DNA of 64,000 nucleotides from Escherichia phage SelmaRatti. The DNA is taken from sequence record MZ501103; one strand, given 5' to 3'. The position numbers were made by a program, and so were the translations under genes. Positions 2,498 through 53,649 of the stretch are shown here, piece after piece (within the stretch, counting starts at the first letter, position 1; each line of letters starts with the position of its first letter). The notes beneath the pieces are model-generated. The model did no database searches. It saw only the letters and a list, made by a program, of their open reading frames with translations, and was not told where the DNA came from.

Positions 2498-3714
2498 TGG
2501 GTTTTAAAAGCTGGATTACTGAAAAGTTAAATCCGGGTCAACGTATTATAAGAGACATGGAACCAGTTAGTCATCGCACTAACCGTAAGCCTTTTACCAC
2601 TGGACAAGCCTACAGTAAAATTGAGATTCTCAATAGAACTGCTAATATGGTTATAGATAGTGCGGCGGAATGTTCTTATACTGTCGGAGATAAATATAAT
2701 ATTGTCACGTACGCTAATGGCGTCAAAACAAAGACTCTAGACACTCTCTTAAATGTACGACCTAATCCATTCATGGATATAAGCACATTCCGTAGACTTG
2801 TAGTCACTGACCTACTTTTTGAAGGTTGTGCATACATCTATTGGGATGGCACATCGCTTTACCATGTCCCGGCTGCTCTTATGCAGGTCGAGGCAGATGC
2901 CAATAAGTTTATCAAAAAATTTATATTTAATAACCAGATAGACTATCGCGTAGATGAGATTATCTTTATAAAGGATAACAGTTACGTGTGTGGCACAAAC
3001 TCTCAAATTTCTGGACAATCTCGTGTTGCTACTGTTATTGACTCTCTTGAGAAGCGTTCTAAAATGCTTAACTTTAAAGAGAAGTTCCTCGATAACGGCA
3101 CTGTGATTGGTCTTATTCTTGAGACGGATGAAATCCTGAACAAGAAATTGCGTGAGCGTAAACAAGAAGAATTACAACTCGATTATAATCCTAGTACTGG
3201 TCAGTCTTCTGTCCTGATTCTAGATGGTGGTATGAAAGCTAAACCGTACTCCCAAATATCCTCTTTTAAAGATCTAGACTTTAAGGAAGACATCGAAGGA
3301 TTTAACAAATCTATCTGTCTAGCCTTTGGAGTTCCGCAAGTACTACTTGATGGTGGTAATAATGCGAATATTCGACCAAACATCGAATTATTCTATTATA
3401 TGACTATCATTCCTATGCTGAACAAACTGACTAGTTCTCTTACTTTCTTTTTTGGTTATAAGATTACTCCTAATACTAAGGAGGTAGCTGCATTAACACC
3501 AGATAAAGAAGCTGAGGCTAAACATTTAACCTCATTGGTTAATAATGGTATTATGACTGGTAACGAAGCTCGTTTAGAGCTGAACCTTGAACCTTTAGAT
3601 GATGAGCAGATGGATAGAATTCGTATTCCTGCTAACGTTGCTGGTTCTGCAACAGGTGTATCTGGTCAAGAAGGTGGTAGACCTCAAGGTTCCACCGAGG
3701 GAGATAAAGAATGA
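2497..3714 (+). CDS. portal protein (pb7-like)
   Basis: 405 aa, position between terminase and prohead protease, TAATG overlap with upstream gene. Confidence 0.85.
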   Translation: MGFKSWITEKLNPGQRIIRDMEPVSHRTNRKPFTTGQAYSKIEILNRTANMVIDSAAECSYTVGDKYNIVTYANGVKTKTLDTLLNVRPNPFMDISTFRRLVVTDLLFEGCAYIYWDGTSLYHVPAALMQVEADANKFIKKFIFNNQIDYRVDEIIFIKDNSYVCGTNSQISGQSRVATVIDSLEKRSKMLNFKEKFLDNGTVIGLILETDEILNKKLRERKQEELQLDYNPSTGQSSVLILDGGMKAKPYSQISSFKDLDFKEDIEGFNKSICLAFGVPQVLLDGGNNANIRPNIELFYYMTIIPMLNKLTSSLTFFFGYKITPNTKEVAALTPDKEAEAKHLTSLVNNGIMTGNEARLELNLEPLDDEQMDRIRIPANVAGSATGVSGQEGGRPQGSTEGDKE

Positions 3715-3971
3715 TTGATTATAATGGTCTAAAGACCATTTTTGGTGAAAAACTGCCAGAATCTCATATCTTCTTTGCTACGGTTGCTGCGCATAAATAT
3801 GTTCCTAGCTATGCTTTTCTGCGTAGAGAACTAGGGCTTTCATCTGCGCATACTAACCGTAAAGTATGGAAGAAATTTGTAGGGGCTTATGGTGCAGCAG
3901 TTCCAACTACTCCTTCTAAAGATTTAACTGCTAGCATGCCTGTTAAAGGGGGGAGCAACGGTGACAGATAG
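3711..3971 (+). CDS. hypothetical protein
   Basis: 86-aa ORF with ATGA overlap to portal stop. Confidence 0.45.
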   Translation: MIDYNGLKTIFGEKLPESHIFFATVAAHKYVPSYAFLRRELGLSSAHTNRKVWKKFVGAYGAAVPTTPSKDLTASMPVKGGSNGDR

Positions 3972-4026
3972 TAATGATTCTACCGCTGGTACAGAGACAG
4001 TTTATCATGTGGCTGGAGTATAATAA

Positions 4027-4659
4027 ATGACACAAGCTGCTATTGACTATAACAAGTTAAAATCAGCACCGGTTCATTTAGACGCTTACATTAAGTCTAT
4101 TGATAGCGAATCCAAAGAGGGTGTTATAAAAATCCGTGGATTCGCTAATACAATTAGTAAAGATCGCGCAGGTGATGTAATTCCTGCTTCTGCGTGGAAA
4201 ACATCTAATGCACTTACTAACTACATGAAAAACCCGATTATTCTTTTCGGACACGACCATCGTCGTCCAATCGGTAAGTGTATTGATCTTAACCCTACTG
4301 AAATGGGTCTCGAAATCGAATGTGAGATCTATGAAAGTTCTGACCCGGCTATCTTTTCACTAATTAAAAACGGTGTACTGAAAACCTTCAGTATCGGATT
4401 CCGCTGCCTAGATGCAGAGTGGGATGAAGCTACTGATATATTTATTATTAAAGATTTAGAACTATACGAAGTTTCGGTAGTTTCTGTACCTTGTAATCAG
4501 GACTCAACGTTCAATATCGCTAAGAGCATGAATGGTCATGATTATACTGAATGGCGTAAATCTTTTACTGCAATAAGTTCTAAAGCTGTCCCAGCTCAAG
4601 AACGTAATCTTTCTGAACTAGAAAAACTTGCGATAGCTTTAGGCTACGTTAAAGAATAA
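4027..4659 (+). CDS. prohead (maturation) protease, HK97 family
   Basis: 210 aa; conserved LFGHDH His region typical of HK97-type prohead proteases; located between portal and capsid genes. Confidence 0.85.
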   Translation: MTQAAIDYNKLKSAPVHLDAYIKSIDSESKEGVIKIRGFANTISKDRAGDVIPASAWKTSNALTNYMKNPIILFGHDHRRPIGKCIDLNPTEMGLEIECEIYESSDPAIFSLIKNGVLKTFSIGFRCLDAEWDEATDIFIIKDLELYEVSVVSVPCNQDSTFNIAKSMNGHDYTEWRKSFTAISSKAVPAQERNLSELEKLAIALGYVKE

Positions 4660-48740: not shown

Positions 48741-48769
48741 CAGAGAAAACCGAGCCAAAATGACTCGGT
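48741..48769 (-). terminator. possible terminator hairpin after paralog gene
   Basis: 6-bp stem accgag/ctcggt with U-rich tail on - strand. Confidence 0.4.
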
Positions 48770-48792: not shown

Positions 48793-49185
48793 TCATTCAT
48801 CATTTAGGCCTGGAACATAAATCCCAATACGGTTTAATTGTTCTTTAGCTTCTTTGAGAATATCTGGAGTGTACTCCCAAATATCATCTTTCACCTGTAA
48901 AAGATGGGGCGAACAACCGTCATCAGGCACACGACATATGGCAAAACCACGTGGATGGAACAAAGAGAAATTTAGGGAAACAATTAAACCCATAGAGGAC
49001 AATTCATTCCAGTCCATCTCCCATTCCCCGGCATATCCAGACAGGAAAACGCCAGTGCAGGGATCATCTATTTGCTGCTCTGGAAAAGTGAAGGAGGCTT
49101 GCTTTACCCCCAACCAACGTTGTAGCAGCTTCTCAGCACGCTTCACCAAACTAGGATCAATCTGGCGCCAATATACTTGTTCCAT
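48793..49185 (-). CDS. hypothetical protein (paralog of 49195-49623)
   Basis: 130 aa; shared blocks GL(I/V)...LN..LF.P and G(I/Y)..PGL with neighbour. Confidence 0.5.
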   Translation of the reverse strand: MEQVYWRQIDPSLVKRAEKLLQRWLGVKQASFTFPEQQIDDPCTGVFLSGYAGEWEMDWNELSSMGLIVSLNFSLFHPRGFAICRVPDDGCSPHLLQVKDDIWEYTPDILKEAKEQLNRIGIYVPGLNDE

Positions 49186-49194
49186 TCTGCCTCC

Positions 49195-49623
49195 TTAAGC
49201 AGTTAAACCTGGGATCATATACCCGAAACGGCGAAGTTTCTGAATCCCCTCATTCACTTCTTCCGGTGAGTAAGACCAACCATAACGTTCATTAACCTGA
49301 AAACCAGGAGATTCACTAGTTTTATAGTTAACAACTAGGCGATGCTTAGCAGGCATAAACAGCTTATAGTTTAACGCAAAAACTAAGCCCATTTCGTCTA
49401 ACTCTTTCCAGCCCACAATCTCTTCAAGACCATCCTCTACCTGCACAATTAAACCAATACAGGGGGCCTCATCAATATCATCCTTAAAAGCAAAGGAGAT
49501 TTCGTTATTCTCACACCATATTTTCAAAGAGTTAATAGCCTCATTATACAGGCTAGCTGGGAGAGTACGCCAAAAGTTAACCAAAATTGGGTTAGCTTCT
49601 TTAGAGAATACATTATTGAACAT
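49195..49623 (-). CDS. hypothetical protein (paralog of 48793-49185)
   Basis: 142 aa; tandem duplicate. Confidence 0.5.
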   Translation of the reverse strand: MFNNVFSKEANPILVNFWRTLPASLYNEAINSLKIWCENNEISFAFKDDIDEAPCIGLIVQVEDGLEEIVGWKELDEMGLVFALNYKLFMPAKHRLVVNYKTSESPGFQVNERYGWSYSPEEVNEGIQKLRRFGYMIPGLTA

Positions 49624-49625
49624 AT

Positions 49626-50075
49626 TTACACCTTAAATTGTTGTAAGGATTTACACATTTCAATATCTGGGCTAAATTCTAGCATATAGCTAACAGCTTT
49701 TAAATCTTGAAGATTTATCCCAGTCCTACCGTTGACTATAACCGTTGGATACTGATACATCATAGCACCAGCACGCTCAATAAGGTCATCAACGTTAGTA
49801 GTCAAATTTACTACTTGACCAGGATATTTCTTATACCATTCCCCAATACGCAAGTGTGCAAGGTTAGGTTCAACAGTTTCTAGCTCTTCACGTCGCTTGT
49901 TGTAAAACATATGGGTTTTATGATAAAAGTTACCACGAAAGGCATGAATATTACATACCTCTTCTAAGTCATAATCATCCCACAATGCTTTACCACTAGC
50001 AGTATCAGTACGGAAGGCTCGTACACCACTTTCAACACTCAAACCTACACCACTGATAATAATTAATCTACGCAT
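49626..50075 (-). CDS. Sir2-like (sirtuin N-terminal half) NAD-binding protein, truncated
   Basis: ISGVGLSVESGVRAFR resembles sirtuin GAGIS..SGI..FR; LW, FY..R.E motifs; NLTTNVDDLIERAG resembles ITQNID.LH.RAG; no zinc ribbon or catalytic HG. Confidence 0.5.
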   Translation of the reverse strand: MRRLIIISGVGLSVESGVRAFRTDTASGKALWDDYDLEEVCNIHAFRGNFYHKTHMFYNKRREELETVEPNLAHLRIGEWYKKYPGQVVNLTTNVDDLIERAGAMMYQYPTVIVNGRTGINLQDLKAVSYMLEFSPDIEMCKSLQQFKV

Positions 50076-50289
50076 TTTTCACCTGTTCTCTAAAGTTTTG
50101 CCCAATACTGTCTAACAGCTCAGCTAATTCTTTATTGCCTTTCTCCATTAAGGTATTAGCAATAACTTCTAGCATAGTAGCGCAGGATTCAACACCATCC
50201 TTATAGCCAGTTTCCCAGTGCTGCATTAATGCGTTTTCCAAAGCGGTGTTTAAATCACTGCCTGGTAGCATCGGCTTCGAGAATGCCAT
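50068..50289 (-). CDS. hypothetical protein
   Basis: 73-aa ORF. Confidence 0.4.
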   Translation of the reverse strand: MAFSKPMLPGSDLNTALENALMQHWETGYKDGVESCATMLEVIANTLMEKGNKELAELLDSIGQNFREQVKNA

Positions 50290-50461
50290 AAAGTTTCTCC
50301 TCTAGTTCCATAACACGATTTTCATAAGAGGCACGCAACTTTTCAATTGCCAGTGCACGCACTGTAACCTCATTAGAATTAATAGCTAATTGGGCCAGAT
50401 CTTCTGTTTCCATACGTCCGTTGTAAATTAAGCGATATTTAAGATGTTTTACGTTTTTCAT
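50255..50461 (-). CDS. hypothetical protein
   Basis: 68-aa ORF. Confidence 0.4.
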   Translation of the reverse strand: MKNVKHLKYRLIYNGRMETEDLAQLAINSNEVTVRALAIEKLRASYENRVMELEEKLYGILEADATRQ

Positions 50462-50817
50462 ACTTTTAGCTCCGCCCCAATATCCTCATAGAAGTAATCG
50501 TAGTAAACTTGCTTAATATGATGCTTAATAACAGAGGAGAAATCCTCTGTGCCATTAGAGGTAACATTAAATACTTGTAAGTGGTTCCAATACACAAATT
50601 CTAGAGTCTCTTTTAAGTCTTCAGGTTCTTCGTATATAGGATTATAGACAGTAATATCTAATTCTTGCTCTACAAAGTCGCCTAGTAATGTAGGATACCC
50701 AATACCTTCTAGTAATGAGTAATCACCCGTAGCAGCAAAAATAGCTTCCTGAATAGTATCTACCCCTAAGTGATAATGTCCTAACTTAGATACAACAATA
50801 AATGGTTTTAGTTCCAT
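50458..50817 (-). CDS. hypothetical protein
   Basis: ATG at 50817 with GAGGAGGG RBS directly downstream of promoter; ORF-track N-terminal 12 aa are promoter/leader. Confidence 0.5.
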   Translation of the reverse strand: MELKPFIVVSKLGHYHLGVDTIQEAIFAATGDYSLLEGIGYPTLLGDFVEQELDITVYNPIYEEPEDLKETLEFVYWNHLQVFNVTSNGTEDFSSVIKHHIKQVYYDYFYEDIGAELKV

Positions 50818-50844
50818 ATACCCTCCTCTCAAATTTATAAATCT

Positions 50845-50873
50845 ATTATACATATATTTTTAGCTGAAAGCAA
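50845..50873 (-). promoter_or_regulatory. T5-type early promoter (TTGCTT-17-TATAAT)
   Basis: reverse complement TTGCTT...TATAATAGATTTATAAATTTGAGAGGAGGG then ATG. Confidence 0.7.
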
Positions 50874-50907
50874 ATAAAATAAAAGCCAGGTCGACTAGCA
50901 ACCTGGC
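50872..50907 (-). terminator. rho-independent terminator after nrdD
   Basis: 7-bp stem gccaggt/acctggc then TTTTATTTTATTT on - strand. Confidence 0.6.
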
Positions 50908-50915
50908 TGATTAGC

Positions 50916-52742
50916 TTATTTAAGATTTAAGTGTTTTACTCTACCAAGCACTTCTTTTTGTTTCCCAGAATTGAAAGGCCTACTGCCCGGGGATCCCAGG
51001 TACCCGCAAACCCTACGTGTAACCTCTATTTCTTCAGATCCACAACCCGGACATACAAACCCACGTTCAGAAGCAACAGATTCACCCATATATCCGCAGT
51101 TGAAACACTCATCAATTGGTATATTAACACCAATATAATGGCTACATTCTAGCCCCTTATCCACCACATACTCAAGAGCTTTGTGGAACTTTTTCATTTG
51201 AGGTAGTTCCACAAATGATATATTACCACCATTAGCTATTTTGGTAAAATGAGCTTCGTACTCAAATTTAGTATCTGGGGCTACTTTCTCTCTTACGTCC
51301 AAATGGTGACTATTAGTAAGATAGCCTTTATCTGTTAACCAAGAATACTCTGGGAACCTACGTTCTAGTAATTTATTAAAACGATTACATAGAGACTCAC
51401 TAGGAGTAGCATACAAGCTAAACCCAAGATTAGTCTCATTAGCTTTAACTTCGCAACGATTTTTTAGGTGAGTGAGAACTTCCTCTGTAAATTCAATACA
51501 ATCCCTATGGGTTTGTGGTAGACCAAACATTATTTGGCACATCTCATAGACCCCAATGTATCCAAGAGATACAGAAGATCTACCCTCAAAAATAGGCCAT
51601 ACATACTCTTCCCCATCTAAACGCACACCAAAACCCCCGTGCATATAAAGAATAGGGGCTTGTTTAGCCTTCACTTTCTTAAGTCTATTTAAGAAAAAAT
51701 CATGAGCTTCAAAAGCCTCATCCACATATTTGTCCAGAATATCCCAGAAATCTTCAAAAACCCCATCTGCCTCAGCAGCAACCATAGGTAGATTAATAGA
51801 CACTACACCTAAATTATTGCGCCCTGCAATTTCTCCGGAGGGGATAGCAGATAAAAAGCTACGACAACCCATAGGTGCTTTAAAATCACCAGTAACAGCT
51901 ACAACTTTCTCGTAACTTAAATAGTCCGGGTACATACGGGTAGCAGAACACTCAAGTGCTAGCTGTTTTATATCGTAGTTAGGGTCGCCTGGATTTTTAT
52001 TTAACCCTTCTTTAACTGAGAATACTAGTTTAGGGAAGATAGGGGTTGACTCAGCAGCACCTAAACCTTTAATACGGTTTTGGAGGATGGCTTTCTGAAT
52101 CATCCTTTCCTCCCACCCCTGTCCTAGCCCAAAGCCAAGCGTAACAAAAGGAGTCTGTCCATTAGAGTTAAATAATGAATTAGTTTCATACTCTAGGGCT
52201 TGGAATGCGTCATAACACTCTTTTTCAGTAAGTTCAGTAGCATATACAGCAGCTTTCCTTTCATCCTTGAGCCAACGTAGACCACGACCCAGATGTTTAT
52301 TGTAAGACTTTCTGACATACGGGGCTAGAACCTCATCGATACGATCAATAGAGGTGCCACCATACTGAGCACCAGATACTTGGGCAATAATCTGAGCAGT
52401 GATTGCACATGCAGTAGTTATGGATTTAGGAGTTTCAATATTTGCATTACCAATTTTAGTACCATTCTTCAGCATGCTACCAAGGTCTACTAAGCAACAG
52501 TTAGTGTACCCCTGTGCTCTGTAATCCATATCATGAATGTGTATCTTACCTAGATTATGGGCGTCTAACAGGTGTTTAGGTAACTCTTGCGATACTAAAT
52601 ACTTGTTAACTTCCCCAGCTAATAAGTCTCTTTGAGTATGGAACATCTCACTAGGTTTATTAGCATTATTATGCTGTAAATCCTTATCCGCAGTTAGAGT
52701 GAGCAGACCTTTGCAATTCTCAATTAATTCATTCTCTGTCAT
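50916..52742 (-). CDS. nrdD: anaerobic ribonucleoside-triphosphate reductase
   Basis: 608 aa; C-terminal glycyl-radical motif RVCGYLG; zinc site CFNCGY...CPGCGS. Confidence 0.9.
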   Translation of the reverse strand: MTENELIENCKGLLTLTADKDLQHNNANKPSEMFHTQRDLLAGEVNKYLVSQELPKHLLDAHNLGKIHIHDMDYRAQGYTNCCLVDLGSMLKNGTKIGNANIETPKSITTACAITAQIIAQVSGAQYGGTSIDRIDEVLAPYVRKSYNKHLGRGLRWLKDERKAAVYATELTEKECYDAFQALEYETNSLFNSNGQTPFVTLGFGLGQGWEERMIQKAILQNRIKGLGAAESTPIFPKLVFSVKEGLNKNPGDPNYDIKQLALECSATRMYPDYLSYEKVVAVTGDFKAPMGCRSFLSAIPSGEIAGRNNLGVVSINLPMVAAEADGVFEDFWDILDKYVDEAFEAHDFFLNRLKKVKAKQAPILYMHGGFGVRLDGEEYVWPIFEGRSSVSLGYIGVYEMCQIMFGLPQTHRDCIEFTEEVLTHLKNRCEVKANETNLGFSLYATPSESLCNRFNKLLERRFPEYSWLTDKGYLTNSHHLDVREKVAPDTKFEYEAHFTKIANGGNISFVELPQMKKFHKALEYVVDKGLECSHYIGVNIPIDECFNCGYMGESVASERGFVCPGCGSEEIEVTRRVCGYLGSPGSRPFNSGKQKEVLGRVKHLNLK

Positions 52743-53592
52743 TGATTATTTCCTCGATAAACTTTATAGCTACTTTTGGTTCAATATTGAAGAATTCCGT
52801 AGCACCGTCAAAATCTTTGTACTGGCAATTCTGCTCTTTAAAGTAGTTATGGGCTAATTTTTCTATTAGAACTGCACCACTATATTCTCCAATTTCAAAT
52901 ACTTTAATTATTTCCAAATCAGTAAGGTGGCTACTAGACCTAATATGTAGAAGTCTACGCTCTGGATTGTTAGATCTACCTATTTTAACTCCGTGTGATG
53001 GGCTATGCATAACATATATCTTAGTACTTTCTAAATCTCTATAACTACAGTAAGGACAACCATTCCCTCTTAATACAGATCCTGGAGTAGCTTCCCACCT
53101 ATGCCCTGCACCACAAAGAAAGGCGGTCTTAGTATTCGCATTACTATACTCACCCACTATTCTGATATTTCTGGCAGCAAGACGATCATTTATAGTATTA
53201 ACACTAAGTTTCTGTTTATTAGCAGCACAAGATGGGCAGCCACTACCTCTATTAATTATACTATTAAGTGTAGTAGCCCACTCATGACCACAAACACACC
53301 TAAATTTAGTATTTATATCAGCACTATTTTTATAGCCGTTCAACAATGTAATACCTCTGTCCTGTAATATAGTATTAATTTTATCAATATCTAGTTTACG
53401 GCTACTAATAGAGCAAGTATGACACTTGGTCTTTCCATTCCTAATGGCGTCAAATTTAGCTGTCCATTGATGACCGTATTCGCACTGATACGTATGCCTA
53501 TACCTAGAATTTTGATATGGCTTATCCACCATAGTAAAACCACGCTCGGCTAGGCATTTATCTACTTCTTCTTGAGTTAATTTTTTCGGCAT
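52729..53592 (-). CDS. zinc-ribbon (x3) + T5orf172 (GIY-YIG-like) domain protein, putative homing endonuclease
   Basis: Three tandem ~50-aa C..GH.W...G..CP.C repeats then KIYVMHSPSHGVKIGRSNNPERRL block; ATG at 53592 with GGAG RBS. Confidence 0.6.
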   Translation of the reverse strand: MPKKLTQEEVDKCLAERGFTMVDKPYQNSRYRHTYQCEYGHQWTAKFDAIRNGKTKCHTCSISSRKLDIDKINTILQDRGITLLNGYKNSADINTKFRCVCGHEWATTLNSIINRGSGCPSCAANKQKLSVNTINDRLAARNIRIVGEYSNANTKTAFLCGAGHRWEATPGSVLRGNGCPYCSYRDLESTKIYVMHSPSHGVKIGRSNNPERRLLHIRSSSHLTDLEIIKVFEIGEYSGAVLIEKLAHNYFKEQNCQYKDFDGATEFFNIEPKVAIKFIEEIINDRE

Positions 53593-53620
53593 TCCACTTC
53601 TCCACAGAATTTTTACACCT

Positions 53621-53649
53621 ATTATACTAAACATTATCCACTATGTCAA
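53621..53649 (-). promoter_or_regulatory. sigma70 consensus promoter (TTGACA-17-TATAAT) for the triple zinc-ribbon endonuclease gene
   Basis: -10 53621-53626, -35 53644-53649 on - strand; divergent from phoH promoter. Confidence 0.6.

Follow-up and report, generated by a model that had tools for sequence, protein, structure and literature searches.

A Sir2-HAD chimeric reading frame of the T5-like Escherichia phage SelmaRatti, most likely the scar of a microhomology deletion

Introduction

Does a lytic phage make use of half a sirtuin, or is such a reading frame only what an accident has left of a complete gene? This question is raised by a locus of Escherichia phage SelmaRatti, a viable T5-like phage of the BASEL collection (PMC11619597), where a reading frame of 149 codons encodes the N-terminal part of a sirtuin and continues into unrelated sequence. 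A preliminary description of this locus had interpreted the product as a truncated sirtuin that could bind NAD+ or ADP-ribose, or serve as a decoy or antagonist of Sir2-based host defences. The analysis reported here covers a stretch of 64,000 nucleotides (hereafter the window) of the 107,080-bp genome, which belongs to the genus Tequintavirus.

One reading frame derived from two genes

An exact-sequence look-up identified the product as QXV84355.1, a protein of SelmaRatti annotated as 'Sir2-like protein'. Its reading frame consists of segments derived from two different genes, which meet at a short repeat:

49626 to 50075, minus strand: chimeric open reading frame of 149 aa, from ATG to TAA (list of open reading frames)
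49767 to 50075, minus strand: Sir2-derived segment, codons 1-103 (Pfam SIR2, PHROG 2162, identity to phiAPCEc03)
49766 to 49773, minus strand: deletion junction, 8-bp repeat TGCTGGTG (nucleotide comparison with phiAPCEc03, T5 and L005)
49626 to 49765, minus strand: HAD-derived tail, about codons 104-149 and the stop codon (tail matches to PHROG 18062 and PHROG 1818)

The similarity of the N-terminal half to sirtuins is far beyond chance. Residues 9-105 match the Pfam family SIR2 (PF02146) with an E-value of 6.6e-12 and 46.2 bits (cutoff 24), residues 1-104 match the phage Sir2 family PHROG 2162 (E 2.8e-51), and residues 3-104 match CobB of E. coli (1S5P, E 6.9e-13). Identity to intact phage Sir2 proteins is 96-98% over residues 1-103, and 96% for the corresponding residues of the Sir2 protein of phiAPCEc03. 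This segment comprises the first Rossmann strand, the GVGLS motif, a helical module, the second Rossmann strand and the motif TTNVDD..ERAG. The sirtuin motifs ISGVGLSVESGVRAFR and NLTTNVDDLIERAG are both present, so that the N-terminal signature noted in the preliminary description is genuine.

That description had also placed the end of the sirtuin before its catalytic half, which is confirmed by the coverage of the SIR2 profile (positions 1-96 of 180 in the chimera versus 1-178 of 180 in an intact phage Sir2) and by the lack of the catalytic His-Gly. In the intact protein this HG is found at residue 113, past the junction at residue 103, and inspection of the chimera revealed neither His-Gly nor CxxC. 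The missing zinc ribbon, which had been listed alongside the missing catalytic residues, has a different weight. The motif is indeed absent, but its absence is uninformative because a CxxC...CxxC zinc ribbon is also missing from intact Sir2 in this phage clade, where cysteines occur only at positions 41 and 183; its loss was for this reason dropped as a sign of truncation. The reference protein for this pattern is the following:

3426 to 4244 of the phiAPCEc03 sequence (L001): intact Sir2, with the same Cys pattern in T5.102

Nor does the product simply stop where the sirtuin ends, as had been assumed, since residues from about 104 to 149 are the C-terminus of a HAD_SAK_2 phosphatase. Residues 98-149 of the chimera match positions 41-92 of 92 in PHROG 18062 and positions 120-161 of 161 in PHROG 1818, and the tail, derived from the final ~46 codons of a T5.105-type gene, aligns to residues 120-171 of the HAD protein with 90% identity. 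The parental protein is a member of PF18143 (HAD_SAK_2, the 'Swiss-army-knife' RNA repair type) with an E-value of 4.3e-20, and a Pfam search of the chimera did not detect PF18143. In comparison with the T5.105-type phosphatases (PF18143; PHROG 1818/18062), the chimera has the last ~46-52 residues in common and shares the HAD stop codon as well as the coupling to a DUF7415 gene, but it lacks the N-terminal ~120-125 residues. These deleted residues, upstream of the retained tail, include the DIDG nucleophile (residue 15) and the DD motif (residue 122), the latter just before the junction.

In RefSeq, homologues of T5.105 are labelled 'Sir2 (NAD-dependent deacetylase)' via PHROG 18062, a family that in truth corresponds to the HAD protein's C-terminal half:

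2427 to 2942 of the phiAPCEc03 sequence (L001) and 4642 to 5148 of L003: T5.105 homologues mislabelled as Sir2 (RefSeq annotation)

The label of PHROG 18062 probably goes back to Sir2-HAD chimeras, such as the one of phage DT57C described below, that entered the clustering. Both annotations at this locus are therefore misleading, namely 'Sir2-like protein' in GenBank for the chimera and 'Sir2' in RefSeq/PHROG 18062 for the HAD gene.

Parental gene arrangement and origin of the fusion

A segment of 2,201 bp of the window matches phiAPCEc03, HdH2, NBEco002, chee24 and T5 at 91-95% identity. In phiAPCEc03, HdH2 and T5, the order of genes is nrdD, a terminator, two to three small ORFs, Sir2, one to three ORFs of ~60 aa, HAD, two DUF7415 genes and a second terminator. 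The Sir2 proteins of these relatives (T5.102) have 272-274 aa and the HAD proteins (T5.105) 168-171 aa, while the small ORFs between them correspond to T5.103/104 and the DUF7415 pair to T5.106/107. The comparison with HdH2 relied on searches and annotation tables, the one with DT57C on protein sequences.

BLAST comparison with phiAPCEc03 resulted in two collinear pieces that meet at positions 49768-49773 of the window. The DNA of the relatives that is left unmatched at this junction amounts to 1368 bp in phiAPCEc03, 1198 bp in T5 and 1041 bp in the metagenomic sequence L005; the differences in size reflect how many small ORFs lie between sir2 and the HAD gene. With the intact Sir2, the HAD protein and the three ORFs between them as queries, tblastn against the 64-kb window detected no more than the two retained pieces; hence, there is no frameshifted or relocated copy. 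This also settles the concern, raised in the preliminary description, that the full Sir2 domain might appear once a sequencing frameshift was corrected. The search returned Sir2 residues 1-103 and no C-terminal half of Sir2 within the window, and the 1.0-1.4 kb in question are absent rather than shifted. Splitting of the gene by a homing endonuclease or an intron was likewise rejected, as the window is shorter than its relatives at this site and not longer.

Both parental proteins have Ala-Gly at the break, which is marked here by a slash: LIERAG/VPHSD in Sir2 and VLDDAG/AMMYQ in the HAD protein. At the nucleotide level, the breakpoints of the T5-type and L005-type sequences share a perfect 8-bp direct repeat, which has the context CG-TGCTGGTG-TTCC in sir2 and GA-TGCTGGTG-CTAT in the HAD gene; phiAPCEc03 matches at 7 of 9 positions of the repeat site. 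In the window, the repeat is located at 49773-49766 on the coding strand, where it forms the codons for Ala102 and Gly103 and the first base of the codon for Ala104, and it has the same codon phase in both parental genes. Since both genes read the repeat in one and the same phase, as Ala-Gly, a fusion at this site is necessarily in frame, and selection is not needed to explain the open reading frame.

Microhomology at both breakpoints is a classical signature of illegitimate recombination or replication slippage. The ancestor of SelmaRatti would have had an intact sir2 gene (272 aa), one to three ORFs of ~60 aa and a HAD gene of 168-171 aa. Two copies of TGCTGGTG, one at codons 102-104 of sir2 and the other at codons ~124-126 of the HAD gene, would then have recombined or allowed replication to slip, with the loss of 1.0-1.4 kb. 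The outcome would have been the in-frame fusion of Sir2 residues 1-103 to the C-terminal ~46 aa of the HAD protein, with the ribosome-binding site of sir2 and the stop codon of the HAD gene being retained. With good confidence, we thus regard the chimera as the scar of one recent microhomology deletion in an early operon of the T5.100-T5.107 type, most likely without a function of its own.

As the junction is found in one deposited genome only, it might also be an artefact of assembly or sequencing, or a minority laboratory variant of a phage that is in reality intact. However, an 8-bp repeat is far below the k-mers used by assemblers, so that an assembly would not collapse at it. Both flanks align cleanly and collinearly, and an analogous real deletion is known from DT57C. 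In addition, a frame-preserving junction at a microhomology is typical of biological deletions. An artefact is, accordingly, extremely unlikely.

Operon context and translation signals

On both sides of the chimera, the genes and signals of the operon have been retained:

50884 to 50908: second terminator-like hairpin, after nrdD and upstream of the operon (position also annotated in T5 and HdH2)
50068 to 50853, minus strand: three small operon genes upstream of the chimera (131, 68 and 73 aa), intact (PHROGs 11748, 5236 and 5827)
50080 to 50084, minus strand: Shine-Dalgarno sequence AGGTG of the chimera, 4 nt before the ATG (read from the sequence)
49629 to 49634, minus strand: Shine-Dalgarno sequence AAGGTG of the DUF7415 gene with its ATG at 49623, within the last codons of the chimera
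48793 to 49623, minus strand: two paralogous DUF7415 genes (homologues of T5.106/T5.107), intact, downstream (Pfam PF24187, E 2.6e-35 and 2.1e-31)
48749 to 48769, minus strand: terminator-like hairpin closing the operon (same position annotated in T5 and HdH2)

The 73-aa gene located directly upstream (50068-50289) overlaps the start of the chimera by 8 nt (ATGCGTAG), and because this overlap and the AGGTG are both retained, the native start context of sir2 is intact. At the other end, the stop codon of the chimera precedes the next ATG by 2 nt, which is the same spacing as in phiAPCEc03, HdH2 and DT57C. The native arrangement that couples the HAD gene to T5.106 is preserved in SelmaRatti. The chimera probably still yields a transcript and a protein, and the downstream genes are probably expressed normally. 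With translation signals retained at both ends of an in-frame fusion, a stable product is conceivable. The tandem DUF7415 genes encode proteins of 142 and 130 aa (PHROG 2502) and are translationally coupled to the chimera; in all relatives examined, this pair adjoins the Sir2-HAD pair.

Two further observations concern the neighbourhood of nrdD. Between nrdD and a PhoH-like gene, where T5 has only a promoter region of ~370 bp, the window contains an ORF of 301 aa (52729-53634, minus strand) that overlaps the start of nrdD by 14 nt. Its Pfam matches are T5orf172/MUG113 (GIY-YIG-like), a DUF4379 treble-clef zinc finger and a CapR domain. The ORF resembles a mobile insertion of the homing-endonuclease type. 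In HdH2, nrdD is annotated as two adjacent CDSs, one of 648 bp and a longer part (L002 4758-6242), whereas NrdD of the window is a single protein of 608 aa. The two-part nrdD of HdH2 could be a split gene, a frameshift or an annotation artefact.

Distribution of the chimera and other lesions at the locus

The chimera is confined to SelmaRatti in all collections that were searched. Among the 245 phage records with a nucleotide match to the 450-bp ORF, there was none in which it is contiguous, and all matches break at nucleotide ~308-310. Among ~15 billion proteins, the only full-length copy was the entry of SelmaRatti itself, and the hits of a search of 5.8 billion protein clusters were without exception either Sir2 proteins, aligned to ~69% of the query, or HAD proteins, aligned to ~35%. 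The exact-match cluster contained, besides the SelmaRatti entry, one partial Sir2 fragment at a contig end. A pattern spanning the junction was absent from the contigs of IMG/VR and the JGI metagenomes; the intact HAD-side pattern used as positive control was found in 10 T5-like contigs of IMG/VR. Intact sir2 is the norm among relatives, with at least 80% of Sir2 being contiguous in 858 of the 999 phage records that have a Sir2 match.

Nevertheless, the gene has repeatedly been lost in T5-like phages, as two further lesions demonstrate:

2501 to 2773 of the DT57C sequence (L004): Sir2-HAD chimera, in frame, ending at the HAD stop codon
3001 to 3825 of a Logan contig of SRR26805010 (L005): sir2 pseudogene, with similar contigs in other samples (several SRA assemblies)

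DT57C encodes a protein of 90 aa annotated as 'putative Sir2-like protein (defective)' (YP_009149862), which consists of Sir2 residues ~171-212 and HAD residues ~135-171. Like the chimera of SelmaRatti, it joins parts of sir2 and the HAD gene in frame at this locus and ends at the HAD stop codon. The two fusions have arisen from independent deletions with different breakpoints, and while SelmaRatti keeps the N-terminal half of Sir2, this half has been lost in DT57C. In the L005 lineage, a GGA to TGA change at the Gly of the catalytic HG (codon 114) leaves a fragment of 113 aa, and the remainder of the sir2 sequence is still present and called as a separate ORF of 110 aa. Hence, two independent lesions have produced N-terminal fragments of similar length, 103 aa of Sir2 in SelmaRatti and 113 aa in the nonsense allele. 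This could be a coincidence or a hint that such a fragment is tolerated or useful.

The recurrence of lesions bears on whether the deletion itself was selected, with the ORF being a by-product. Loss of the Sir2-HAD pair or of the small ORFs could have been advantageous if one of the lost genes sets off a host defence, consumes NAD+ to no purpose or carries a cost on the laboratory isolation host, and in-frame losses ending at the HAD stop would have been favoured because they keep the coupling to the DUF7415 genes. At least three independent sir2 lesions in T5-like phages are in agreement with this explanation, as is the fact that the alleles of SelmaRatti and DT57C are both in frame and both run to the native HAD stop, which leaves 2 nt before the next gene; moreover, the single event in SelmaRatti hit both partners of a predicted module (see below). 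On the other hand, the Ala-Gly repeat in the same phase fully explains the in-frame outcome, and two in-frame alleles would be obtained by chance in about 1 of 9 cases. A general cost of the gene is contradicted by the great majority of relatives in which Sir2 is intact, and a search of the literature retrieved no work linking T5.102 or T5.105 to the triggering of a defence. Selection for the loss is therefore unlikely, and an accidental deletion remains the preferred origin of the chimera.

Remaining capability of the product

Intact Sir2 of T5-like phages (T5.102/YP_006930, PHROG 2162, PF02146) is a CobB-like protein, with which the chimera shares the genomic position as well as the start and the ribosome-binding-site context. 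In contrast to this protein, the chimera lacks residues 104-272, which comprise the HG, the other Rossmann strands and the C-terminal extension, and it has an additional substitution in the NAD-binding loop. This loop reads G-V-G-L-S instead of G-A-G-x-S as a result of a single GCA to GTA change that replaces Ala10 by Val, although Ala is found at this position in 73 of 73 aligned homologues. Among the 42 columns that are conserved to at least 95% across homologues, A10V is the only deviation of the chimera.

Substitutions private to the chimera are few: two nonsynonymous and five synonymous ones in the Sir2 part, and one nonsynonymous and no synonymous one in the tail. With three nonsynonymous and five synonymous changes in total, relaxed constraint cannot be shown statistically. 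The deletion is recent; the retained Sir2 part has hardly decayed, and the time since the deletion may have been too short for decay.

A structural model of the product was computed with AlphaFold2 from an alignment of 74 Sir2 and 10 HAD homologues. Residues 1-105 adopt a sirtuin-like conformation with pLDDT values of 74-92, whereas residues 107-149 remain below 50, and the foreign tail is thus not predicted to pack. Only two Rossmann strands (residues 4-8 and 88-92) are modelled, together with the helical module, and four of the six strands of a sirtuin are lost. Foldseek searches with the model retrieved CobB (E 5.5e-7), SIRT5 and Sir2Af over ~105-112 columns, with TM-scores of 0.3-0.4 when normalised to the target, so that by this measure the predicted structure amounts to less than half a sirtuin. 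Structure prediction and the PF02146 profile search thereby agree in assigning the N-terminal half to the sirtuins, as proposed in the preliminary description. The pLDDT of this half is, however, no evidence for the stability of the fragment, because it derives from the full-length sirtuins in the alignment. The model was consequently discarded as proof of a foldable fragment, and only its unplaced tail is informative.

These losses exclude both parental activities. The chimera cannot be a sirtuin enzyme, because the catalytic His and four of six Rossmann strands are absent and the GAG motif is damaged, and it cannot be a HAD phosphatase, because DxD and DD are gone and the last ~46 residues of the domain are all that remains. 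As for host defence, the SIR2 NADases of defence systems (ThsA, DSR1/2, Sir2-HerA, pAgo-Sir2) have the broad sirtuin superfamily in common with the phage protein, but the intact phage protein is a member of the classical CobB-like PF02146 family and is matched by no PADLOC model. Searches against PADLOC-DB at E ≤ 0.01 gave 0 families for the chimera and 0 for the intact phage Sir2. Since the models match neither of them, there is no basis in the sequence for mimicry of a defence-type SIR2.

A functional half-sirtuin would require that the N-terminal half folds alone or as an oligomer and then acts as an NAD+ or ADP-ribose module, or as a decoy or dominant-negative form against host Sir2 defences or CobB. 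Such a role would be compatible with a genuine and nearly undecayed N-terminal half, the sirtuin-like conformation modelled for residues 1-105, an ORF that is in frame behind a good ribosome-binding site, and the second lineage in which a nonsense mutation leaves an N-terminal fragment of 113 aa. However, the predicted conformation is silent on the stability of the fragment, as outlined above, the C-terminal NAD-contacting half is gone with only two of six Rossmann strands left, and the invariant Ala of the GAG motif has been changed to Val. Moreover, the fusion occurs in a single genome and originates from an accidental microhomology deletion, and DT57C keeps a C-terminal piece of Sir2 instead, so that no fragment is consistently retained. 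Together with the missing PADLOC matches of a CobB-like clade, this makes a functional half-sirtuin very unlikely. Neither of the two roles suggested in the preliminary description is therefore upheld. A dedicated module for binding NAD+ or ADP-ribose is not what would be expected of an accidental fusion in one genome with A10V, two of six Rossmann strands and an unplaced tail, and the proposal of a decoy or antagonist of Sir2 defences fails on the same accidental, single-genome origin and on the PADLOC result. The chimera is an ordinary deletion remnant of a single genome, pseudogene-like, with a known precedent at the same locus in DT57C.

Implications for a predicted RNA repair module

The pair of a sirtuin and a SAK-HAD protein in SP15-like and T5-like phages has been predicted to form an NAD+-dependent module for the repair of RNA ends (Iyer, Burroughs, Aravind et al. 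2022, PMC9503650, section 3.7.3). According to this proposal, such sirtuins act like KptA/Tpt1 by removing 2'-phosphates from RNA ends that were cut by metal-independent nucleases (PMC9503650). In the literature, no experimental work on T5.102, T5.105 or phage sirtuins was found beyond this computational prediction, and the study of NARP3 deals with another NAD+ module, in another phage of the BASEL collection (PMC13464706). The locus of SelmaRatti has the same gene pair as the predicted module and belongs to the same phage group, but both genes have been truncated by one deletion. As a consequence, the predicted repair module should be non-functional in SelmaRatti.

It is conceivable, though highly improbable, that the fusion protein is stably made early in infection and that its helical or substrate-binding sirtuin module still binds the natural target of the phage sirtuin, which would be an RNA with a damaged end or else a protein of the host, or an NAD-derived ligand, and has a sequestering or dominant-negative effect. 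If this were true, the recurrent N-terminal fragments of SelmaRatti and of the 113-aa allele would represent tolerated or useful 'half-sirtuins' and not debris.

As a protein, the chimera is of little importance and is regarded here as a gene scar. The deletion that produced it, by comparison, is of interest for the biology of this phage group: SelmaRatti lost both members of the predicted module in one event, yet it still grows lytically on E. coli K-12. It is thus a natural and viable double knock-out of the sirtuin and SAK-HAD pair that can be used for testing the predicted repair module, for which BASEL sister phages annotated with a Sir2-like protein, such as HildyBeyeler and GreteKellenberger, are possible comparators.
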